Assembly (NCBI GenBank): GCA_963810465.1
Contig: CAWENM010000002.1
Span: 451,001-515,000, forward strand
Reading direction: 5' to 3'
Source: an uncultured Acidobacteriota bacterium
Lineage (GTDB): Bacteria > Actinomycetota > Acidimicrobiia > Spongiisociales > ZC4RG35
DNA length: 64,000 nt
In this document: positions 4,746-47,308 of the stretch, in pieces
Position numbering within the stretch: position 1 is the first letter of the stretch
How the letters are laid out: each line of letters starts with the position of its first letter
Position numbers and translations under genes: made by a program
The notes under the pieces: model-generated
Told to the model about the DNA's origin: nothing
The model's database searches: none
The model's input: only the letters and a program-made list of their open reading frames with translations

Positions 4746-6242
4746 TCAGTCGATGAGGTGGATCGGGTTCCCGATCATGTAGGCCCGCCAGGTCGTGGTG
4801 TCGTTCACCGCCGACGGGTAGGCGTAGCTCATCTTCCACCAGCAGTTGGTGCAGGAGTACGCCGCAGGCAGATCCATCTCGAACTTGAGCCAGCGTCCGT
4901 TGTACTCACCGGGGGCCACCGATTCCTGGCAGTTGGTCCCACTGGGGATGGTTGCTTGCAGGTTCCAGGCCACGGTCGGGTTGTTGCGGCTGTAGATCCG
5001 GCACTGGCCGTCGTTGAAAACGCTCGCCGTGGGATCGACCACGGCCAGGGTCCCATTGGCGGCCGACTCCCCGGCGTCGTACAACTCCACCACGAAAGTC
5101 TTGCCGTGGTAATAGGTGGGCACTTCTGCCAGGTAGAAGGAGGTTGTTGTGCCGCTGGCGTTGTTGTAGATGGAGAAATCACCGAGGGCGAACAGCTTGG
5201 CCCCGTTGAGGTTGGCTCGGACCGAGTAACGATTCAGACCGGCCCGGTCGACCGTGGCGCCGGGGTCTTGAACTGCGATCTGGAGGACATAGATCCCGGT
5301 GCCGGACTGAGTCCAACATGCGTTGCCGTTTGGCGTCGCCCAGCCGTAGGCGGCGGTGGGGAGTACCTGCCCGGCGGGGCTGAGGGTTGCCGTACACAAC
5401 GGAGCGGCATTGTCGGAGAGGTCGAGTGGTGTGGGGTCCGGAGCGTAGAGCCTGACCACCATGGTCGGCCCACAGGTGGCGGCCGCGCTCGGGGTCCAGT
5501 CCTCGCACCCACGGTCACCGGTGCGAATGGTGTCACTGGTGGGGTTGCCACCAGAGGTGTTGAAGAATCTGAGGTCGATCCCCTGGATCGTGAAGGGGCC
5601 GGTCCCCCTCTCGATTCCGTAGAGATAACCACCCGGTCGGGCGATCGGGTTCGCGGTACAGGTGGGGACATCCGAGCTTCCGACACAGTGCGATGTGTAG
5701 GCATCACCCATGCTGGTGTCGGTGAACCATCCATGGATGTTGGCCCAGAAGTTGGGCTGTCCGGACGGGCAGCCGGCCGACCCCGGAGCGCAGCCGTTGC
5801 CGAAGTCGCCGGCTGGGCTCCCCAATTTCAACGGCGGTATGTACTCAGCTACCGCCGACCGCTCAATCGTCATCTCGTCGAAGCCGAGCGCGCCGAGGAA
5901 GAAGGTTGGCACCACGTCTTGGACCGATACACCGAGCTGGTTCGGCTCGCCGGTCACTGCACCGGAGCTGACCACCACATCGGCGTCGGCGTCGTTGTAT
6001 CCATTTTGCAGTGCGGTGGCGAGGGCAGTGCTGTTGGCCGTGCCGGTGTTGGCGGGCAGCCAGACGACACCGCCGAGGGCGGCGGCGTCCGCGGCTCGCT
6101 GTACGCGGCTGGCGTTCAGATAAAACCAAGCAAGGTCGGTGCCGAAGGCGGCCATCCCCAAGAGAAGCACCATCGACATGGCGACCAGGATCATGGCTGT
6201 GCCATTGTCCTTCTCGCGAGCTCTCTCGAACAGTTTCCTCAT
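4746..6242 (-). CDS. large TadG-like pseudopilin: TadG N-terminal domain plus about 380-aa domain with 14 cysteines (copy 1)
   Basis: 498 aa. The N-terminus (GTAMILVAMSMVLLLGMAAFGTDLAWFYLNASRVQRAADAAALGG) matches the Flp-pilus-assembly TadG N-terminal (Tad_N) domain. The remainder is Cys-rich with no vWA MIDAS motif. Start ATG 6242 overlaps the stop of the upstream TadE-like gene (ATGA). Confidence 0.8.
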   Translation of the reverse strand: MRKLFERAREKDNGTAMILVAMSMVLLLGMAAFGTDLAWFYLNASRVQRAADAAALGGVVWLPANTGTANSTALATALQNGYNDADADVVVSSGAVTGEPNQLGVSVQDVVPTFFLGALGFDEMTIERSAVAEYIPPLKLGSPAGDFGNGCAPGSAGCPSGQPNFWANIHGWFTDTSMGDAYTSHCVGSSDVPTCTANPIARPGGYLYGIERGTGPFTIQGIDLRFFNTSGGNPTSDTIRTGDRGCEDWTPSAAATCGPTMVVRLYAPDPTPLDLSDNAAPLCTATLSPAGQVLPTAAYGWATPNGNACWTQSGTGIYVLQIAVQDPGATVDRAGLNRYSVRANLNGAKLFALGDFSIYNNASGTTTSFYLAEVPTYYHGKTFVVELYDAGESAANGTLAVVDPTASVFNDGQCRIYSRNNPTVAWNLQATIPSGTNCQESVAPGEYNGRWLKFEMDLPAAYSCTNCWWKMSYAYPSAVNDTTTWRAYMIGNPIHLID

Positions 6243-6796
6243 TGTGTGCCTCGGGTATCGGGCTCGATCTGCATCACTGCAGACTCGGTCCAGTTGACGG
6301 TTGGGAAGGGGAAGATCCCGGTGATGTCGGTGTGGGAGAAAATGACTTCGACACCGAGGTCATCGAAAGTGGGCGGCACCCGGTCCCGACTGGCCGGCGC
6401 CCATGGGCAGCCGTTGACACAGCCGAGATTGGTGGCGGCGCTGTCACATGCCAGCGCTGCGGTCGGCTCGTACACGTTGACCGACCCGGTTATCGGATTA
6501 CCCGCCGCGTCGGCCTTGTAGATACGTACTTCTTCCAGGTCGCCGAAGTTGAGGTTGCAGGCGGACTCTTCTACGGCGGCGAGAATCAGATCGTCGGCGT
6601 CCTTCCCCGAGACAATGTCGTTGAAGTTCGCAGCAGCGGCGCCCGTACGAGCTCCCTCACGGGCCGAGTTGCTGACCGTGAGATAGTCCACGACGAGGAA
6701 GCCGACCTCGGAGAGCCCGATGGCCATCAGAATCAGCAGAGGGAGGACTATCGAGGCCTCGATCAGACTGGCGCCCTTCTCGAATCTGTTTCTCAT
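6239..6796 (-). CDS. TadE/TadF-like minor pilin (copy 1a)
   Basis: 185 aa. N-terminus MRNRFEKG|ASLIEASIVLPLLILMAIGL shows the class-III prepilin leader with G/xxxxE and the TadE-like hydrophobic segment. 4-nt overlaps link it to both neighbours. Confidence 0.8.
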   Translation of the reverse strand: MRNRFEKGASLIEASIVLPLLILMAIGLSEVGFLVVDYLTVSNSAREGARTGAAAANFNDIVSGKDADDLILAAVEESACNLNFGDLEEVRIYKADAAGNPITGSVNVYEPTAALACDSAATNLGCVNGCPWAPASRDRVPPTFDDLGVEVIFSHTDITGIFPFPTVNWTESAVMQIEPDTRGTQ

Positions 6797-7398
6797 GAGG
6801 TGCCGAACACCTGTGGTTCGACCTGGAAATCGGTGGAGGCGGTGAAGTCTGCGTCCGGCGTGAAGTACCCGGTGAGCCAGACGTGGGTGAAGTCGACCGC
6901 GACACCGATCCGGTCGGTGGTTGGAGCTTCGACATCACGGTCTGCCGGATCCCAGACGGGGGTGACATAGGTGGTGCGGAAGGGCTCGGGGCAAGGGGAC
7001 CAGTCACAACAACCGGGGAGGGCGGGAGAGGAGGTGCTGGCACAGCCGGTGCCTGGGGCATAGTTGTAGGTGGTCGATTCGCCTAGAGGAGTGGCTTCGA
7101 AAATCCTGGCGGTCATGCCATCCGAGATTCCCGCCGGCGACAGCGTCTGCTCGATGTCCCGGAGGATCTGTATGTCGGCCCGCGGATCGTCGCCATAGGT
7201 CGCTCCAGCCCTGGCGCCTTCACGTGCTGCATGGCTCACCGAGAGCCAGTCCTTGAAGGCGAGACCGAACTCGACGACTGCGAACAGGGTCAGAAAGAGC
7301 AGGCCGTACACAATGGCCGCCTCGACCAGCGTTGCCCCGCGCTCACGCCCGGGATCGCCCCGATCGATGATGCCCCTGATGCCTTTCACTGCCTTCAC
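6793..7398 (-). CDS. TadE-like minor pilin (copy 1b); start uncertain
   Basis: The ORF runs to a TTG at 7491, but the paralog at 9607..10185 has only a 10-aa leader before RG|ATLVEAA. A GTG at 7398 (GGTGGAAAGAC spacer) or a GTG at 7389 are more plausible starts. The TadE domain is ATLVEAAIVYGLLFLTLFAVVEFGLAF. Confidence 0.65.
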   Translation of the reverse strand: MKAVKGIRGIIDRGDPGRERGATLVEAAIVYGLLFLTLFAVVEFGLAFKDWLSVSHAAREGARAGATYGDDPRADIQILRDIEQTLSPAGISDGMTARIFEATPLGESTTYNYAPGTGCASTSSPALPGCCDWSPCPEPFRTTYVTPVWDPADRDVEAPTTDRIGVAVDFTHVWLTGYFTPDADFTASTDFQVEPQVFGTS

Positions 7399-13867: not shown

Positions 13868-14143
13868 ATGCAGAGCAAGCTCATCCAAGCCCTGGCTGTT
13901 GGTGAGCTTTCCTGGCAGGACTACGCCAACTGCCGTGGCGCCGATGCCGACCTCTTCTTCCCCGAGCGGGGGGCTTCCACCCGGAAGGCGAAGGCGATAT
14001 GCACTGCCTGCGAGGTGCGGGCGGAGTGTCTCGACTACGCAGTCGACATGGGCGAGAAATTCGGCATCTGGGGTGGTCTCAGCGAGCGTGAGCGACGTCG
14101 GGTCCGGCGCGAGCGAACCCAACGGGAACGCAAGGTCGGATAG
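13868..14143 (+). CDS. whiB: WhiB-family (Wbl) transcriptional regulator
   Basis: 91 aa; four conserved Cys (C22, C45, C48, C54), the GIWGG turn, and a basic C-terminal tail. Strong RBS AGGAGA. Confidence 0.9.
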   Translation: MQSKLIQALAVGELSWQDYANCRGADADLFFPERGASTRKAKAICTACEVRAECLDYAVDMGEKFGIWGGLSERERRRVRRERTQRERKVG

Positions 14144-14728: not shown

Positions 14729-15724
14729 TTAGGCCCTGACCTCGTCGCGCATGAAGGCGATGTAGGCGGCGGCGAACATGACGGCCGTGAGGGCGACCAG
14801 GATGGCGATCTGGGGCCAAACCACTGCCAGGCTCTGGGTCAGGTTGAGCTCGGAGACGATGGCTCGGTCCACTTGTTCCACGGTGACCAGCCCGACGGTG
14901 CGCACCTCGGGGTCGAGCAGCACGCTCGAGCCCTGTTGAAAGAGGGTCACCGGCGACAGTTGTGACACGGTCTGGGCGGTTTGCTGGTAGGCGATCTCGG
15001 CCGCATCCGACCCATCTCTCGGGCTGAGGACACTGGCCACGGCGCTGAAAATGAAGGACCCGAACAGCGTTAGCACCAACCAGATGCCGAGGGGGATCAT
15101 GGCCGAGGTCGACGCCCGTTTCGATAGGACCGAGGTCAACGTGGCCAGGGCTTGCCAGAACCCGACATAGATGATGGCGAAGACCAGCCACACCGCAAGC
15201 CGTGAGATCTCGGTCGGCGTGGGCACCACCCCGAGTCTGAGGATCCCGATGCCAGACACGAACAGCACGAGGGCGGTGAGCATGATCGACACCACGGTCA
15301 GCCCGGCCACGAACTTGCCCAGGATCACCTCATCGCGGTGAATCGGCTGGGAGAGGAGCCGGGGCAGAGTCCCTTGTGAGCGCTCGCCGCTGACCGCGTC
15401 GAACCCGAACATGATCCCCAGGAGCGGGGCCAGAAACCCGACGAAGACGATGAGTGGGAACGGGACAGGGTCGGCGGTCACGGTGAAGAGCTTGAGGAAC
15501 AGCGCCGTGATCCCCTGGGCGTTGGGGGCGACGTCACGGATCCCGCCCGAGGCGGCGAAAACCGCGGCGGCGGTCGCGATTCCGAGCACCCCCATCAGGA
15601 CCACGAAGCGTCCCGAGAGCAGATGATCGGCGATCTCCTTTTGCGCCACCGCCCTCCATCCACCGACCCTGGTGGATTCGACGGCAGGGACCTCCTCGGC
15701 GACGACGTCTGCGTCAGTGGTCAT
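14729..15724 (-). CDS. ABC-2 family transporter permease
   Basis: ATG at 15724 (MTTDADV...) overlaps the ATPase stop (ATGA). Six TM segments and ABC-2 features. The longer upstream ORF portion is rejected. Confidence 0.8.
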   Translation of the reverse strand: MTTDADVVAEEVPAVESTRVGGWRAVAQKEIADHLLSGRFVVLMGVLGIATAAAVFAASGGIRDVAPNAQGITALFLKLFTVTADPVPFPLIVFVGFLAPLLGIMFGFDAVSGERSQGTLPRLLSQPIHRDEVILGKFVAGLTVVSIMLTALVLFVSGIGILRLGVVPTPTEISRLAVWLVFAIIYVGFWQALATLTSVLSKRASTSAMIPLGIWLVLTLFGSFIFSAVASVLSPRDGSDAAEIAYQQTAQTVSQLSPVTLFQQGSSVLLDPEVRTVGLVTVEQVDRAIVSELNLTQSLAVVWPQIAILVALTAVMFAAAYIAFMRDEVRA

Positions 15725-16671
15725 ACCGTCGCCTCCTCTTCTTCCTCGATCTCGAAGTACCGGCGATAGATGGTCTCCAGGTCTTCGTCGAGGCGATGGA
15801 CGCCGATGACGTCGACCCCTTTCGAGACGAGACCGCTCACCGCTGGTGCCAGCGACTCTGAATGGAGGTCGGCCACCCAAGACCCGGGCGCACGACCCGG
15901 GGCGACGCCGGTGACAGTCCCGAGAGACTCCAGGTCGGCTCGGCTCTTCGACGGGTCGCCACCCAGACGGAACTCGACCCGGATGTTGCCTTCCTTGTCG
16001 ACGGCGGCGAGCTCGTGCGGTGTGCCTTGGGCGACCACCTTGCCCCGGACGAAGATGGCGACCCGGTCACACACCGCCTGCACCTGGTGGAGGAGATGGC
16101 TGGCGAGGAGAACAGTTACGCCCTCCTCTTTGGCGAGCCTTTGGATCAGGTTGAGCATCTCCACCACGCCCTCGGGGTCGATGGCGGTGGTCGGCTCGTC
16201 CAGGATGAGGATCGACGGGCCTTTGACCAGGGCATCGGCCACCCCGAGACGTTGCTTCATGCCGCGCGAATACTCCCCGGCCGGCTGATCACCGGCTTCG
16301 CCCAGACCTACGAGGTGGAGAAGCGACTCGATGAGGTCCTCGTAGTCGTCGAGACCATTGAGGCGGGCGGTGAAGCGCAGGTTCTCCCGCCCGGTCATCG
16401 GGTCGTAGAAGCCCACGGCGTCGGGCAAATACCCGACCTTCCGCTTGACCTCGATGGGGTTCCATCTCGGATCGAGGCCGAGGACTTCGATCTTCCCTTT
16501 CGTCGGCTCGACCAGGCCGAGCAGCATGAGGATGGTCGTCGTCTTCCCGGCACCATTCGGTCCGAGGAGCCCGAAAACCTCGCCGGCGTCGACGTCGAGG
16601 TCGAGCCGGTCGACGACGGTGTGCTCGCCGTAGGTCTTGGTCAGCTTCCGGCTGCGGATGGTCGAGGCCAT
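15721..16671 (-). CDS. ABC transporter ATP-binding protein
   Basis: Walker A GPNGAGKTT, ABC signature YSRGMKQRLG, Walker B ILILDEPT. Confidence 0.9.
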   Translation of the reverse strand: MASTIRSRKLTKTYGEHTVVDRLDLDVDAGEVFGLLGPNGAGKTTTILMLLGLVEPTKGKIEVLGLDPRWNPIEVKRKVGYLPDAVGFYDPMTGRENLRFTARLNGLDDYEDLIESLLHLVGLGEAGDQPAGEYSRGMKQRLGVADALVKGPSILILDEPTTAIDPEGVVEMLNLIQRLAKEEGVTVLLASHLLHQVQAVCDRVAIFVRGKVVAQGTPHELAAVDKEGNIRVEFRLGGDPSKSRADLESLGTVTGVAPGRAPGSWVADLHSESLAPAVSGLVSKGVDVIGVHRLDEDLETIYRRYFEIEEEEEATV

Positions 16672-16672
16672 G

Positions 16673-17851
16673 TCAGCGACGGCCGAAGCGCCGGAAGACC
16701 CAGGCCAGACCGGCGAGAGTCAGGGCGATGACGGCGATCCCGACGAAGCCCCAGATTGCGGAGGGGTTGACAGTCGTCCGCACCTCCATCTGGGCGTCGG
16801 CCTGCTCGTGGGTGGCGGTGAAGCTGATCACGTAGTCGCCGGCGACCGCTTCCTCCGACGGCGTGATGGTTGCCACGACCGGCACTGTCTCACCTGCCGG
16901 GATGGTGACCTCCTGGCTGTCGAAGGCGACCTCCCACCCCGTAGGCGGGGTGACCCCGACCACGACATTGTCGAGGTCGGCAGTCCCGGTGTTGGTCAGG
17001 ATGATCTGGAAGTCACTGGTGCTACCCACTGTCACCTCGGCGTTGAGGCGCTGGTCGGCGGTGGTCATCTCCAGGGAGTAGGAACCGGTCACCTCCACGA
17101 TCATCTCGGTCTCAACAGTCGACCCCGGTGCAGTTGCCACGAGTGTGACCGGGTACTGGGCGGCCTCGGCCTGGACCGGCGGGGTCACTGCGACGTTGAT
17201 CGTCTCGGTGCCACCGGCCTCGACCAGGACGGTGGAAGCCTGGGCCTGACCGGAGAGCTCGGCGGTGACATCCCATCCCGATGGGGCGGTGGGGGTCAGC
17301 TCGAACTCGAGGTCGGCGGGGGTGCCGTTGGACAGCTCGACATCGAAGGTGACCTCCTCACCGGCGGGGGAGCGAAGACCCGGGAAGTTGGGAGTCAGGG
17401 TCACCTCACCGCCGGCCAGGGCGGAGACCCGGACCGCGATCGGCAGGGCGACAGTCTCGGCGCCACCGGAGGCGTTGATTGTCATCGGGAACTCGCCTTC
17501 GGTCACGCTGGTCGGAACCGTGACGTCGAAAGTGAGTTCGGGCTCGAGTCCGGGTCCGGCTGTTACCGAGTCGACCTCGAAGCCGCCGCCTCGGAAGGCG
17601 GCTGTCCAGCCTTCGGGCACACCGTCCACGGCGAGGGCGACCTCGACCTGCGCCGGTGCGCCGATCGTGAGCGCGAAGCTGACCTGGTCCCCAGGCTCGA
17701 CCGCGACCGACGGAAACGGCGTGCTGACGGTCAGCGCGGTGGCGGGGAGAGTCGTCGGTGTCTCCTCCTCCGTCTGCGCCAGAGCCGCAGGGGCGAGAGC
17801 CAGCGTGGACACCACGGCCAACGCCACCAGCAATTGCCTCTTCGACACCAA
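16673..17851 (-). CDS. secreted repetitive beta-sandwich protein (NEW3/COG1470-like) with C-terminal TM anchor
   Basis: Start taken at TTG 17851 or GTG 17848, giving signal peptide VSKRQLLVALAVVSTLALAPAALA|QTEE. It carries repeated about 100-aa T/V/E-rich units and a C-terminal TM helix plus RRFGRR. The 5' part of the longer ORF (16673..18313) overlaps the transglutaminase gene and is rejected. Confidence 0.6.
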   Translation of the reverse strand: MVSKRQLLVALAVVSTLALAPAALAQTEEETPTTLPATALTVSTPFPSVAVEPGDQVSFALTIGAPAQVEVALAVDGVPEGWTAAFRGGGFEVDSVTAGPGLEPELTFDVTVPTSVTEGEFPMTINASGGAETVALPIAVRVSALAGGEVTLTPNFPGLRSPAGEEVTFDVELSNGTPADLEFELTPTAPSGWDVTAELSGQAQASTVLVEAGGTETINVAVTPPVQAEAAQYPVTLVATAPGSTVETEMIVEVTGSYSLEMTTADQRLNAEVTVGSTSDFQIILTNTGTADLDNVVVGVTPPTGWEVAFDSQEVTIPAGETVPVVATITPSEEAVAGDYVISFTATHEQADAQMEVRTTVNPSAIWGFVGIAVIALTLAGLAWVFRRFGRR

Positions 17852-17955
17852 GGTGATCAGAGCTCCTTCTTCATCGGTTTTGGGCACAAACACTGGAAAT
17901 GACCGCAGAGACCCTAAATCGATGATAAATCCATTGAGAAAACGGTGCGCCGCCG

Positions 17956-18828
17956 CTACTGCTCGGCCATCTGCGACAGACGCTCCCGGCTGATGCGCAC
18001 CTGGACCCCCAGCTGGTGGTCCGCCCCGCCGTGATAGACGCCACGCAACGGCATGACGTCCTGGTAATCCCGGCCGTGTCCGATCTTGATATGAAGCTCG
18101 CCGACAGGCTGGGCATTGGTCGGATCGAGACCCCACCATCCGTGCCCGGGCACGAAGACTTCGAGCCAGGCATGGGTCTGCACGCTCAGCTCTGGCTCGT
18201 CCGGGGCCACTGCCGAAGTCTGTTCGGCGGCGTACAGATAGCCCGACACATACCGGGCCGGGATGCCGATGCTGCGATACATCGCGATGCCGAGATGGGC
18301 GAAATCCTGGCATACCCCCTTGCCCTGAGACATGACATCCGCCACGTCGACGCCGACGTATGTGGCGCCCGGCACGTAGTCGAGCGTTGACGTGACCTTG
18401 CCAGAGATAGCGGTTGCCACGTCCAGCACTTCAACCGCGCCACCGACCGCCTCTCTGGCTGCCTCTTCGATCGGCTCGTCCCAGATCGCGTGGGGCGAGG
18501 GGCGGAGAAAGCTGGACAGCTCCCCACGCACCGACTCGAGCGCCTCGACGGTTGCCTCACTCGATGGGCTCGCCGGGGCTGCGGTGTCGACCTTCGACTC
18601 GGCCATGATCCGTAGAGCACGGTGAGGCTCGACGATCCCGAACTCGTCGACTCTGGTCCCCCAGTAGTCGGTGTAGGAGTGGACCCGGGCCGTCGGGGTG
18701 ACCTCGACCCGATACGCGGCCAACTGCTGATGGTCGTCATTGGCGGGACAGGCTCGGAGCAGGTTGTGCGACTCCCAGGCCGGCTCCCCGTAGGTGAACT
18801 CGTTCAGATAGCGGATCTCGAGTCTCAT
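17956..18828 (-). CDS. transglutaminase-like cysteine protease domain protein (with bacterial transglutaminase N-terminal domain)
   Basis: ATG at 18828 (MRLEIRYLNEFTYGEP). Cys/His/Asp catalytic motifs GKGVCQDFAHL, HAWLEVF and GLDPTN. The start overlaps the alpha-E stop (ATGA). Confidence 0.8.
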   Translation of the reverse strand: MRLEIRYLNEFTYGEPAWESHNLLRACPANDDHQQLAAYRVEVTPTARVHSYTDYWGTRVDEFGIVEPHRALRIMAESKVDTAAPASPSSEATVEALESVRGELSSFLRPSPHAIWDEPIEEAAREAVGGAVEVLDVATAISGKVTSTLDYVPGATYVGVDVADVMSQGKGVCQDFAHLGIAMYRSIGIPARYVSGYLYAAEQTSAVAPDEPELSVQTHAWLEVFVPGHGWWGLDPTNAQPVGELHIKIGHGRDYQDVMPLRGVYHGGADHQLGVQVRISRERLSQMAEQ

Positions 18829-19784
18829 GCCCACCTCTGGAAGTGGAGCTGAAGATCGGTGCCGGCGCGGAAGAAGTGGGCCTCCACCTCGTCGGAGACC
18901 TCGTAGATCTCCTTCTGCAGCTCCTCGAGGAAAGGGTCGAGTCGTCCGTCGACAATTGTGGGGATGTCGGTGAACTCGGCATGGGCTCGCACCCGGCCCA
19001 CCGCCCGCTCCATGCTGGTCTGCTGACTCGAGCCGGCGAGCCGATCGATCAGACGCTCGACCTGCTGGAGGCAATAGAGGACGCTGCGAGGGAACTCCTG
19101 GTCGAGCAGCAGGAACTGGAGCACGTCGGTCGGGTCGAGGGAGGCGTCATGCGCCTTGAGATAGGCCTCGTAGGCCGAGACCGACTTGAGCACCGACACC
19201 CAGGCGTGAAACCCGGACTGGCCTTCGCCACCGGCGAGACGGGCATATCGGACGGAGAGGAGGCGGCAGGTCATCTCGGCGCGCTCGAGAAGAAGTCCCA
19301 GCAGCATGAAGCGATAGCCCTCGTCGCGGGGCATGGTCTGGGCGGCGACGCCGCTGATCAGCTGACACCTGCTCTTGATGCTCCGGAACACCTCGTAGGC
19401 CCGTCGGTCGAGATCGAGGTGGAAGTCGGCGCGGGCCAGATCGAGATGGAAGACATTGATCGCCTCCCACAACTCGGTCGAGATCCGGTCCCGCAGGCCG
19501 CGGGCGTTGTCACGGGCTCGTTCCACCGCCGAGATGATGGAGCCAGGGTTGTCGCGATCGGCAACCAGATAACTGCTGACGGCGCTGCTCTCCAACGGAC
19601 CGGTGTAGAGGGCATTCACAAATAGGACCTCGAGCAGCTCGCCCCAGGTGGTCTCCGCTCCGTCGCCCGGGGATTCGAGGAGGTTGTGATAGGTCACGTC
19701 GAGCATGCGGGCGGTGTCCTCGGCCCGCTCGACATAGCGACCCACCCAGAAGAGGTCCTCAGCGTGTCGTGACAGCATGCCCAC
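18825..19784 (-). CDS. alpha-E domain protein (DUF403)
   Basis: 319 aa, all-alpha. The N-terminal LFWVGRYVERAEDTARMLDV is typical of the alpha-E family that accompanies circularly permuted ATP-grasp enzymes. Confidence 0.75.
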   Translation of the reverse strand: MGMLSRHAEDLFWVGRYVERAEDTARMLDVTYHNLLESPGDGAETTWGELLEVLFVNALYTGPLESSAVSSYLVADRDNPGSIISAVERARDNARGLRDRISTELWEAINVFHLDLARADFHLDLDRRAYEVFRSIKSRCQLISGVAAQTMPRDEGYRFMLLGLLLERAEMTCRLLSVRYARLAGGEGQSGFHAWVSVLKSVSAYEAYLKAHDASLDPTDVLQFLLLDQEFPRSVLYCLQQVERLIDRLAGSSQQTSMERAVGRVRAHAEFTDIPTIVDGRLDPFLEELQKEIYEVSDEVEAHFFRAGTDLQLHFQRWA

Positions 19785-21195
19785 TCCCGTTGCTCAGCAC
19801 CCATGTGTCCTTGGACCCACCGCCCTGTGAGGAGTTGACGATCAGTGACCCCTTCCGCATCGCTACCCGTGTCAGCCCGCCCGGCACCACCTCGATCCTG
19901 TCCCCGCTGAGCACGAACGGGCGCAGGTCGACATGGCGAGGCTCGAGATGCCCGTCGACGAACGTGGGATGGGTGGAGAGCTGGACGATCTCCTGGGCGA
20001 TGTACCCCCTCGGGTTGGCGTGGAGCGCGCCGGCGGTGGCCTCGAGGGTGGCCTCGTCGGCCACGCTGCCGATCACGATCCCGTATCCGCCGGCCTCGGC
20101 CACCGGCTTGACCACCAGCTGGTCGAGGCGGCTCAGGATGAGCTCGAGCTGGTCCGGCTCCCAGGGGAGATACGTGGTGACATTGGGGAGAATCGGTTCC
20201 TCGCCCAGGTAGTAGTCGATGAGAGCGGGGATGTAGGGATACACGCCCTTGTCGTCGACCGCCCCATTCCCGATTGCGTTGGCGACGGTCACCGAGCCCG
20301 CCCGGGCCGCACCGTGCAGACCCGGGACGCCGAGGAGGCTGTCCTGGCGGAAGACGACAGGGTCGAGGAACTCGTCGTTGACCCGGCGGTAGATCACATC
20401 GACACGTTTGAGTCCTTTGGTGGTGCGCATGAAGACTTGGCGATCGTCGACCAGGAGGTCACGGCCTTCCACCAGCTCGATGCCCATCTGCCGGGCGAGG
20501 AATGCGTGCTCGAAGTATGCAGAGTTGGCCACCCCGGGGGTCAGAACAACCACGGTGGGATCGTCGGCGTTGGGTGGGGCGATGGCGCGCAGGGCACGAA
20601 GCAGCGACGCCCCATAGTGGTCGACGGGCCGGATGACGTGGCTGGCGAAACCGACCGGGAGGATCCGGGTCATCGCCACCCTGTTCTCGAGGACATAGGA
20701 GATCCCGCTCGGCACTCGCAGATTGTCCTCGAGCACGCGATACGTCCCCTCGTCGTCGCGGACGATGTCGATCCCGGCCACCACGCAGCGAGAGCCTCGA
20801 GGGGCGGGGATGCCGTGGGCCTCGCGGACATATCCGTCCGCCGACTCGACCAGCCAGCGGGGGATGATCCCGTCGTTGATCGCCTGCTGACCGCCGACGT
20901 AGAGATCGTCGAGGAAGCGGTTGAGGACGGTCACCCGCTGTACCAGCCCGGACTCGATATGGCTCCACTCATCGGAGGGGATGATCCGGGGCACCAGGTC
21001 CATCGGCCAGGTGCGCTCGAGACCGCCCTCGTGACCGGTGACGGCGAAGGTGATGCCGAGCGTGCGAAAGAAGGAATCGAGCAGCCCGAGACGGTCGCTG
21101 AGCTCGGCGTCTCCGATCTCGGCGAGACGATTCATCAAGGCCTCGTAGTGAGGACGTACGCCGTCGGGGCCGTGAACCTCGTCGAAGCTGCCCAT
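19759..21195 (-). CDS. circularly permuted ATP-grasp (type 2) amidoligase-family protein
   Basis: ATG at 21195 (MGSFDEVHGPDGVRPHYEAL). This is the roughly 480-aa family found with alpha-E and transglutaminase genes. The ORF's upstream 50 codons are rejected. Confidence 0.8.
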   Translation of the reverse strand: MGSFDEVHGPDGVRPHYEALMNRLAEIGDAELSDRLGLLDSFFRTLGITFAVTGHEGGLERTWPMDLVPRIIPSDEWSHIESGLVQRVTVLNRFLDDLYVGGQQAINDGIIPRWLVESADGYVREAHGIPAPRGSRCVVAGIDIVRDDEGTYRVLEDNLRVPSGISYVLENRVAMTRILPVGFASHVIRPVDHYGASLLRALRAIAPPNADDPTVVVLTPGVANSAYFEHAFLARQMGIELVEGRDLLVDDRQVFMRTTKGLKRVDVIYRRVNDEFLDPVVFRQDSLLGVPGLHGAARAGSVTVANAIGNGAVDDKGVYPYIPALIDYYLGEEPILPNVTTYLPWEPDQLELILSRLDQLVVKPVAEAGGYGIVIGSVADEATLEATAGALHANPRGYIAQEIVQLSTHPTFVDGHLEPRHVDLRPFVLSGDRIEVVPGGLTRVAMRKGSLIVNSSQGGGSKDTWVLSNGSGHAVTTR

Positions 21196-21242
21196 CGGCG
21201 AAGTGTATTGAGGGCGTTGTTCCCGAATTGTCTCGGTGCAGG

Positions 21243-21620
21243 TCAGATGTTGGCCAGCGGGTGCCCGGTGTCGGCCCGGACTTCGGTCCCGCAGAACTGG
21301 CAGTTCCGCAGACCCGGCGCCACCTTGGACTGGCAGGATGGGCACTCAACGATTAGGTCGCGAACTCGCTCGTCGTCGACTCCGTCCTGGAGATCGAGCT
21401 CGTTGATCTTCTCCATGAGCCGCTCCGGGGTGATCCCTTGCTCTTCGAGGAGGGCCAGGGTCGCCCGCATGATCATCACCAGGCGGTCGATTCGCTCGTT
21501 CAGGTCTTCGATCCGGTTGGTGTGGTGGGTCCCGTCGGCGACGGCGGCGCTTCGCGCCAGTGACGCAGCCTTCGCTGCCGAGGACTGGCCCATGCTGTAA
21601 CCGAGATAGAACTCGAGCAT
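21243..21620 (-). CDS. small protein with C-terminal CxxC...CxxC zinc ribbon
   Basis: Start taken at ATG 21620 (an alternative ATG lies at 21593). Helical N-terminal part, then ECPSCQSKVAPGLRNCQFCG. 48 nt upstream of the ATP-grasp gene on the same strand. Confidence 0.5.
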   Translation of the reverse strand: MLEFYLGYSMGQSSAAKAASLARSAAVADGTHHTNRIEDLNERIDRLVMIMRATLALLEEQGITPERLMEKINELDLQDGVDDERVRDLIVECPSCQSKVAPGLRNCQFCGTEVRADTGHPLANI

Positions 21621-21727: not shown

Positions 21728-21946
21728 ATGGCTGAGGACTACCCCCCGATCCTCGACGCGGCGCAGGTGGCGGAGTTGCTGGGAATGAACGTGCAAATGG
21801 TTCGGCGCTACGCCAGGGAAGGGCGGTTGCCCGCCTACAAGCTCCCCGGTGGCCGGACCTTCAAGTTCTTCCGGGACGAGATCTACGAATTCGTCCGGGC
21901 CCACCCGGTGACAGCGGAGACCGAAGATGTCAGAAGCGAGATGTAG
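21728..21946 (+). CDS. excisionase-family helix-turn-helix DNA-binding protein
   Basis: 72 aa; LDAAQVAELLGMNVQMVRRYAREGRLPAYKLPGGRTFKFFRDEI is the MerR-like Xis-family HTH. Confidence 0.7.
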   Translation: MAEDYPPILDAAQVAELLGMNVQMVRRYAREGRLPAYKLPGGRTFKFFRDEIYEFVRAHPVTAETEDVRSEM

Positions 21947-22460
21947 AGCGGATAACAGCGACGACCTGTCGGATAGGGACCACGATGGTGTTCCCGTCCT
22001 GGGTCAGTTCGACGTGATCGGTGGCCACCACATCGACGGACCCGACGATTGCTCTTCCATCGACGACGACGATTCGAACCGGCTCGACAGTCGCCGCGAT
22101 CTCGGCGAGCCGGGCCCGGAACGTGAGCTTGTCACCGCTCTGCTCGCTGCCACCCGTCTCGCTGCGCTCCACTGTCCACACCGCCGAGTCGAGGACCACT
22201 TCGACGACGTCATCGCCGCGGTCGATGCTGGCAAAGTCGGCGCCGGCGTAAACGACGCGGCCGGAGAAAGTGTGGGCTCCGGTCTCGGCGCGCACTCGCT
22301 CCCCGCGGTGAACCAGCTCGAGGACTCGCCCGGAGAGATCGAGCCTCCTCCTCCGGAGCAGCTCGGTCAGCTTCTCGTCCTCGGCGGCCTCCTCCAACCA
22401 CTCACGCCCAGCTCCCTGGCGAAGGTGGGACTCGACATCCCGATCCGGTGTTTGTTCCAT
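21930..22460 (-). CDS. hypothetical protein
   Basis: 176-aa ORF with GC3-rich codon usage and no TM segment or recognisable family. Sits between the HTH gene and cpaB. Confidence 0.4.
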   Translation of the reverse strand: MEQTPDRDVESHLRQGAGREWLEEAAEDEKLTELLRRRRLDLSGRVLELVHRGERVRAETGAHTFSGRVVYAGADFASIDRGDDVVEVVLDSAVWTVERSETGGSEQSGDKLTFRARLAEIAATVEPVRIVVVDGRAIVGSVDVVATDHVELTQDGNTIVVPIRQVVAVIRSTSRF

Positions 22461-47235: not shown

Positions 47236-47308
47236 GGTCCCGTCGTCCAGTGGCCTAGGACGCCGGCCTTTCAAGCCGGAAACGCCGGTTCGAATCCGGT
47301 CGGGACTG
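47236..47308 (+). tRNA. tRNA-Glu (anticodon TTC)
   Basis: GGTCCCG acceptor stem, anticodon arm CCGGC-CTTTCAA-GCCGG, T-loop GGTTCGAATCC. CCA is not encoded. Confidence 0.8.

Follow-up and report, generated by a model that had tools for sequence, protein, structure and literature searches.

Genes for a circularly permuted ATP-grasp protein (COG2308), an alpha-E protein (COG2307) and a transglutaminase-like protein (COG1305) form one of the most widespread conserved operons of unknown function, found in Pseudomonas and Yersinia among others. The trio drew attention at first through its partnership with Anbu, a homologue of the proteasome (Valas & Bourne 2008, PMC3235984), a link that has gone unexplained since 2008, and was read as a peptide-ligase/peptidase system by Iyer et al. 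2009, as cited in PMC6376114 and PMC5666114. Here we analyze a copy of this triad in a 64,000-nucleotide stretch of contig CAWENM010000002.1 (hereafter the window). Its source is a soil Acidimicrobiia lineage whose best relatives are metagenome-assembled genomes (MAGs) with 85–97% identical ATP-grasp proteins. We find that the window holds a canonical copy of the widespread operon, which is likely to be a self-contained unit (21195-17956, minus strand) with its own leaderless mRNA, the neighboring genes being separate units that share a variable slot.

Members of the family have been approached from several sides. The ATP-grasp protein of Yersinia bercovieri frees orthophosphate from ATP, and neither protein–protein interactions among the products of the Yersinia operon nor peptidase activity of Anbu was detected (PMC6376114). 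When nitrogen is limiting in P. putida, no other gene set is induced as much as the operon (note in PMC3235984). The B. cenocepacia operon shows a 6–9-fold dependence on NtrC/sigma-54 and is co-regulated within the NtrC regulon with urease, polyamine and amino-acid transporters (PMC5491218). The function of Anbu was still called unknown in 2021 (PMC8665760). According to Valas & Bourne (PMC3235984), COG2308 has a weak match in the glutathione-synthetase ATP-binding superfamily, and lysates with Rv2411c or Rv2567 made no gamma-aminobutyric acid (GABA)-trehalose (bioRxiv 10.64898/2026.04.15.718621). A PLoS Pathogens paper on the Rv2569c 'serine protease', of uncertain relevance to the family, makes no mention of a transglutaminase domain or catalytic triad. 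An initial annotation of the window had stated that no member was characterized biochemically. This holds for physiological function, none being found in the literature surveyed, but is too strong given the phosphate release by the Yersinia enzyme, the structures 3n6x and 3isr and the negative GABA-trehalose test.

Results

Identity and conservation of the triad

The window proteins were compared by tblastn with 80 loci (numbered from L001) retrieved with the ATP-grasp protein. They include Acidimicrobiia, Mycobacterium, Gordonia, Rhodococcus, Solirubrobacterales and one Opitutaceae MAG, with ATP-grasp homologues 54–97% identical to that of the window. Further loci carry homologues of the upstream zinc-ribbon gene (L081–L086) or of the gene for Bpa, which lies downstream (L087–L090; 74–75% identical). 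The triad and its putative promoter are laid out as follows.

21202..21207, minus strand: TACACT, a -10-like hexamer (TANNNT) that ends 6 nt short of the ATP-grasp ATG; putative promoter
21195-19759, minus strand: circularly permuted ATP-grasp gene (COG2308), first gene of the triad, 478 aa; PF14403 E 4e-156, PF04174 E 1e-139
19784 or 19778 to 18825, minus strand: alpha-E gene (COG2307); PF04168 E 8e-92
18828-17956, minus strand: transglutaminase-like gene (COG1305), 290 aa; PF08379 E 2e-18, PF01841 E 5e-23

All four domain assignments made initially (CP_ATPgrasp_2, Alpha-E, Bact_transglu_N and Transglut_core) were confirmed by Pfam (E 4e-156, 8e-92, 2e-18 and 5e-23, respectively). The PF14403 match to the ATP-grasp protein is full length (model positions 1–374 of 374), and that of PF04168 to alpha-E covers positions 1–294 of 294. 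The likely alpha-E start is the ATG at 19778, which yields 317 aa and matches the homologues. The structure 3n6x, of an orthologue, could be aligned to ATP-grasp residues 4–468 of 478 (E 1.5e-148). The protein had no significant Pfam match to classical ATP-grasp families, and none to GSP_synth at E up to 0.01. In the transglutaminase-like protein, C173, H219 and D235 are invariant among 17 orthologues from four lineages, and the region of these catalytic residues aligns with 3isr and with the TgpA structure 6g49 (E 1e-4 for the latter). Signal peptides are absent from all three proteins, so they are expected to act in the cytoplasm.

Gene order and strand of the triad are kept in ~78 of the 80 loci, essentially all those with sufficient sequence, an arrangement that is beyond chance by far. 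Clustering of the open reading frames (ORFs) showed the triad genes to be the only clusters common across lineages, and no fourth conserved partner gene emerged from it. In line with this, 127 genes flanking the triad in ~40 non-Mycobacteriales loci matched 146 Pfam families, none of which recurred more than 5 times (BPA, 3); the 25 families listed as most recurrent for these genes included no proteasome, Pup-system or Anbu family. Within the scope of these scans, none of the 80 loci had Anbu directly beside the triad. In the window, the gene after the transglutaminase-like gene encodes a NEW3-repeat protein and not Anbu, and among the window genes scanned there was no proteasome-family match and no proteasome or Pup-system gene. 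The best 120 alpha-E matches were all stand-alone, with no fusion to ATP-grasp or transglutaminase domains; fused forms do presumably occur, such as Rv2567.

Collectively, the window has a full-length ATP-grasp gene, an adjacent downstream alpha-E gene, a third gene with intact Cys-His-Asp residues and a unit conserved across lineages. The triad is a canonical copy of the widespread COG2308-COG2307-COG1305 operon, that is, of the Anbu-operon core. It belongs, as initially proposed, to the amidoligase/peptidase systems predicted bioinformatically (Valas & Bourne 2008, PMC3235984; Iyer et al. 2009, as cited in PMC6376114 and PMC5666114).

The G+C content around the locus is 63–67%. A plasmid megablast of the region gave no match, and Rfam found 3 tRNAs only in the whole window, none of them in the region. 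Among the relatives, several Microflora Danica bins (L001–L003, L008 and L022) are labelled 'uncultured Acidobacteriota'; their ATP-grasp proteins are 77–97% identical to those of bins labelled Acidimicrobiia; the Acidobacteriota label on these bins is probably a taxonomy label error.

A putative leaderless promoter at the ATP-grasp gene

The initial annotation had described an operon of four genes, from the zinc-ribbon gene to the transglutaminase-like gene. These genes are indeed co-directional and closely spaced: 47 nt lie between the zinc-ribbon and ATP-grasp genes, the ATP-grasp 3' end and the alpha-E start overlap by ~20 nt, and the alpha-E stop and transglutaminase-like start overlap by 4 nt in ATGA. 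Leaderless transcripts of actinobacteria are usually marked by a -10 box shortly before the start codon. Of 35 Acidimicrobiia loci, 31 have a TANNNT hexamer 6–9 nt upstream of an in-frame ATP-grasp start codon, whereas the same spacing was found at 37 of 7000 random anchors (0.5%). The hexamer is often identical (TACACT) across loci despite differing surrounding sequence. Since TANNNT is conserved before the ATP-grasp start and rare at random positions, a leaderless transcript of the triad alone probably begins within the 47-nt gap.

A further motif, G(G/T)AACA, is conserved ~10 nt upstream of TACACT (window 21208-21235) and at the homologous sites of L001–L004. It could be where a regulator binds, but a reading of this motif as a GlnR-type box was set aside, as the genomes are too closely related for its conservation to mean anything.

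The zinc-ribbon gene

21620-21243, minus strand: zinc-ribbon gene, 125 aa, with a coiled coil and a C-terminal CPSC...CQFC; Pfam DZR E 1e-3 (below cutoff); neighbor of the triad

The 198 homologues of the zinc-ribbon ORF show that it is a real gene. All organism-named homologues come from Acidimicrobiia, and one alone has a Pfam match. The conserved start is at 21620, identical to the end coordinate of the initial annotation. Upstream of the ATP-grasp gene, the zinc-ribbon gene is confined to the closest relatives: L003–L006, a frameshifted copy in L001 and one ~670 nt off in L022. L007–L021, L023–L037 and all non-Acidimicrobiia loci have no copy before the triad. Conversely, homologues occur away from the triad. 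In L081–L086 they are 62–64% identical, have no triad nearby and are convergent with the distal (TadE) end of a Tad pilus operon, and in L089 a 44% identical copy stands two genes before Bpa, again without a triad. Because the family appears restricted to Acidimicrobiia, is found without the triad and has a conserved, putative leaderless-type promoter between it and the ATP-grasp gene, the zinc-ribbon gene is best placed outside the triad system, as an unrelated neighbor. The proposed four-gene operon was not borne out on these grounds.

By analogy with ribosomally synthesized and post-translationally modified peptides (RiPPs), the zinc-ribbon protein might serve the ATP-grasp ligase as its dedicated substrate or precursor. 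Its position directly upstream, on the same strand and 47 nt away, and its conservation in L003–L006 would fit such a role. However, the gene is missing upstream of the ATP-grasp gene in the many loci named above and present without the triad in L081–L086 and L089, and a 125-aa protein with a structured coiled coil and zinc ribbon is unlike a leader-core peptide. We consider this role extremely improbable.

In the two closest relatives the zinc-ribbon gene seems to be damaged or gone: L001 (9498-9929) carries an N-terminal half with a frameshift, and upstream of 10001 in L002 no copy could be detected; this could reflect long-read assembly errors or real decay. The triad is intact in both genomes, which lack a sound zinc-ribbon gene. 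The family recurs at the edges of Tad pilus loci, and in the window it lies near the cpaB end. A Tad-related role is possible for it, judging from this recurrence.

Neighboring genes and the variable slot

The genes downstream of the triad are the following.

17851-16673, minus strand: gene for a secreted NEW3-repeat protein; PF10633 E 2.5e-27, three stretches; neighbor
16671-15721, minus strand: ABC ATPase gene; PF00005 E 2.6e-28; neighbor
15727-14729, minus strand: ABC-2 permease gene; PF12679 E 1.4e-32; neighbor
14662-14657, minus strand: TAGGCT, conserved, 6 nt upstream of the bpa ATG
14650-14186, minus strand: bpa; PF10759 E 2e-48; neighbor

The NEW3 gene follows the transglutaminase-like gene after a gap of ~105 nt and is tightly coupled to the ABC ATPase and ABC-2 permease genes (14729..17851). 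Among the triad loci, this NEW3+ABC-2 unit is present in L001–L004 only. In L088 it adjoins Bpa (72–86% identical to the window's), and this genome has neither triad nor zinc-ribbon gene at the locus. Supporting the independence of the unit, ~85 nt upstream of NEW3 (about 17852-17935), including the Shine-Dalgarno sequence, are conserved between the window and the triad-less L088. The reverse combination also occurs. In L022 bpa starts 11 nt after the transglutaminase-like gene and in L008 an opposite-strand membrane-protein gene lies between the triad and bpa, and both loci are without NEW3+ABC-2. A hexamer TAG(G/T)(C/G)T stands 6–8 nt before the bpa ATG in seven genomes (window, L002–L004, L008, L022 and L038), whatever lies upstream, which suggests that the bpa transcript, too, may be leaderless. 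The protein itself passes as a bona fide Bpa, with the BPA domain and a C-terminus ...TGLYL of the GQYL type, GQYL being the motif of M. tuberculosis Bpa.

Comparison with the Bpa loci L087–L090 shows that these and the window share one frame, in the order Tad operon, up176, HTH_17, slot, Bpa, WhiB, sdhCAB, TadE/TadG and DHDPS, which spans 3869-26426 of the window. The cpaB-cpaE-cpaF... genes run on the plus strand from 22515 and the TadE/TadE/TadG-like genes lie at 10185-4746, so that Tad-related genes form two blocks on either side of Bpa-WhiB-sdhCAB. In L087–L090 Bpa-WhiB-sdhCAB is kept without the triad, and the slot between HTH_17 and Bpa holds other genes.

L087: MPAB, DUF1801, RibD_C and a Tricorn-like protease
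L088: NEW3+ABC-2 only
L089: zinc-ribbon gene and a cupredoxin-like gene
L090: DUF2238 only

Because slot contents differ among genomes, the zinc-ribbon gene, the triad and NEW3+ABC-2 are three cargo units that assort independently, with Bpa as part of the frame.

These data bear on the idea that the zinc-ribbon gene, triad, NEW3, ABC-2 and Bpa genes are transcribed together and make up a single system for peptide ligation or processing on substrates that are exported or bound for the proteasome. Nine co-directional genes with short gaps, no terminator-like site found between them and the full arrangement kept in L001–L004 would agree with it. L001–L004 are, however, close relatives (88–97% ATP-grasp identity), so their shared order is inherited. 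Moreover, the components assort independently in L008, L022 and L087–L090, promoter-like or 5' regions are conserved before the ATP-grasp, NEW3 and Bpa genes, and the triad proteins have no signal peptides. A single system of this kind is highly improbable. The initial annotation had also taken the NEW3/ABC-2/Bpa context as a functional hint and had envisaged co-transcription from 21677 to 14186. The former finds no support, given NEW3+ABC-2+Bpa without a triad in L088 and triad and Bpa without NEW3+ABC-2 in L022 and L008; the latter is unlikely in view of the conserved upstream elements before the three genes.

A narrower proposal is that the triad of this clade works with Bpa and the 20S proteasome, perhaps tagging or conditioning substrates for ATP-independent degradation. 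It draws on the adjacency of triad and Bpa in the window, L001–L004, L008, L022 and L038, with the 11-nt gap of L022, and on the triad's standard pairing elsewhere, in Gram-negative bacteria, with the proteasome homologue Anbu (PMC3235984, PMC5666114). The adjacency is confined to a single clade, and we give it little weight because it amounts to one evolutionary event. In 29 other loci from Acidimicrobiia and 42 from Mycobacteriales or other groups, Bpa was missing from the 10 kb around the triad, and no Bpa–triad linkage was found among the triad loci beyond the window's clade. Furthermore, Bpa keeps its frame without the triad in L087–L090 and has its own conserved -10-like box, and in L008 the opposite-strand gene parts it from the triad. 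We regard the proposal as very unlikely, though the pattern keeps some interest as a small residual lead.

Several other features of the frame were noted. The co-directional run is flanked on both sides by small regulator genes on the opposite strand: a HTH_17/MerR-like protein (plus strand, 21728-21946, 72 aa), divergent from the zinc-ribbon gene and sharing 17 nt with the end of up176, and a WhiB-family protein (plus strand, 13868-14143, 91 aa), convergent with bpa. The up176 gene (minus strand, 21930-22460) encodes a conserved 176-aa protein without Pfam or NCBIfam match; NCBIfam likewise had no model for Bpa, the zinc-ribbon protein or any of the triad proteins. In the window, L087–L090 and L001–L008 (36–91% identity), up176 is always divergent from cpaB, and it is probably associated with the Tad locus. 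In L087 the Tricorn-like protease gene (5115-6965; Tricorn_N, Tricorn_2nd and PD40; 616 aa) lies directly upstream of bpa on the same strand, a pairing of two proteasome-associated themes that could be coincidence. The rest of the window (28814-28987, 47236-47308 and 33413-59302) is ordinary chromosome, with three tRNA genes and genes for an H+-pyrophosphatase, GltX, EPSP synthase, pyruvate phosphate dikinase, an S15 peptidase and a Rieske/FAD reductase.

Discussion

Proposed mechanism and substrate

We propose that a leaderless mRNA begins at the ATP-grasp ATG, driven by the TACACT -10 box. The alpha-E and transglutaminase-like genes are translationally coupled through their overlapping start and stop codons. 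Going by the chemistry of its family, the ATP-grasp protein would turn a carboxylate into an acyl-phosphate and join it to an amine through an amide bond, of either the gamma-glutamyl or the peptide type. Alpha-E, an all-helical protein, may be its obligate non-catalytic partner, acting as adaptor, regulator or substrate holder, and the papain-fold Cys-His-Asp protein would hydrolyze or transfer the amide so made. Our best inference is that an ATP-dependent amide ligase works as a pair with a cysteine enzyme, an amidase or transamidase. Use under nutrient limitation, nitrogen above all, is probable by analogy with the proteobacterial members. The zinc-ribbon, NEW3+ABC-2 and Bpa genes would be transcription units of their own, with no part in this mechanism.

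Two kinds of substrate can be envisaged. The ATP-grasp protein could make a small molecule, a gamma-glutamyl-amine or glutathionylspermidine-like metabolite, for which the transglutaminase-like protein would be the amidase, in a nitrogen storage or scavenging cycle. The depositors of 3n6x named it 'putative glutathionylspermidine synthase', COG2308 weakly matches the glutathione-synthetase ATP-binding superfamily (PMC3235984), and the B. cenocepacia operon sits in the NtrC regulon beside urease, polyamine and amino-acid transporters. The name, however, is an annotation and not an assay, and GSP_synth did not match at E up to 0.01. In addition, the Anbu association and the ~300-aa, non-enzymatic-looking alpha-E protein fit a macromolecular substrate better. 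The failure of Rv2411c and Rv2567 lysates to make GABA-trehalose also speaks against a small-molecule product, ruling out one product only. Such a cycle is possible but rather unlikely. We slightly favor a protein or peptide substrate over a small metabolite because of the Anbu association and the nature of alpha-E.

Some observations weigh against the self-contained triad and the mechanism proposed for it. The link to nitrogen limitation comes from Proteobacteria, not Actinomycetota. The promoters are putative, being called from conserved hexamers; a scan for the sigma-70 consensus gave 0 promoters, being uninformative for a high-GC actinobacterial lineage. No terminator was found between the zinc-ribbon and ATP-grasp genes, in a scan whose terminator matches were at chance level; read-through from the zinc-ribbon gene is possible because no terminator separates the two. 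Finally, the triad–Bpa adjacency persists across the clade (window, L001–L004, L008, L022 and L038), which leaves room for a lineage-specific functional tie between triad and Bpa.

As we see it, the window gives no new handle on what the triad does: its suggestive neighbors are a mosaic in a variable slot, and the zinc-ribbon, NEW3/ABC-2 and Bpa genes are unfit as guilt-by-association clues. What it does give is a clear module boundary of three genes, probably with a leaderless transcript from the ATP-grasp ATG. The residual lead, the triad–Bpa adjacency within one clade, invites one speculation, a decidedly long shot: the triad was recruited beside bpa since it feeds a Bpa–20S route, for example by adding or trimming a gamma-glutamyl or peptide mark for ATP-independent degradation. 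If true, this would be the actinobacterial counterpart of the triad–Anbu pairing and the first functional handle on both.

Comparison with known systems

At the protein level, two structures resemble members of the triad. Both 3n6x, which comes from structural genomics, and 3isr are unassayed structures that bear predicted names. 3isr, a transglutaminase-like putative cysteine protease, aligns with the catalytic core of the window protein, as do TgpA-type transglutaminases in their core (6g49, E 1e-4). No solved alpha-E structure was found. Glutathione synthetase, RimK and glutathionylspermidine synthetase are expected to share the acyl-phosphate ligase chemistry with the window ATP-grasp protein (PMC6376114). 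Compared with these classical ATP-grasp ligases, the window protein has a circularly permuted fold and belongs to separate Pfam families.

At the level of gene arrangement, Rv2411c-Rv2410c-Rv2409c and its Mycobacteriales orthologues have the same three families in the same order and on the same strand as the window triad, with identities of 54–57% for ATP-grasp, 31–41% for alpha-E and 34–41% for the transglutaminase-like protein. The Mycobacteriales loci are laid out as holA-rpsT-triad...lepA, which matches the Rv2413c-Rv2404c layout of M. tuberculosis; because of this shared layout they correspond to Rv2411c-Rv2409c. Like the window's, the Mycobacteriales triad has no Anbu gene, but its chromosomal neighborhood differs from that of the window. 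The ATP-grasp and alpha-E genes overlap in Acidimicrobiia, whereas a gap of ~150–200 nt separates them in Mycobacteriales; the leaderless-type -10 box was examined in Acidimicrobiia only.

The Anbu operon of Proteobacteria and Cyanobacteria shares with the window its first three genes, their order and their predicted chemistry (Valas & Bourne 2008; Iyer et al. 2009; Piasecka et al. 2018). It is the sole member set with any biochemistry, from the Y. bercovieri ATP-grasp protein, and with expression data, in the form of induction by nitrogen limitation. The difference lies in the fourth gene, which in that operon encodes Anbu, a homologue of the proteasome's beta subunit, and in the window the NEW3-repeat protein.

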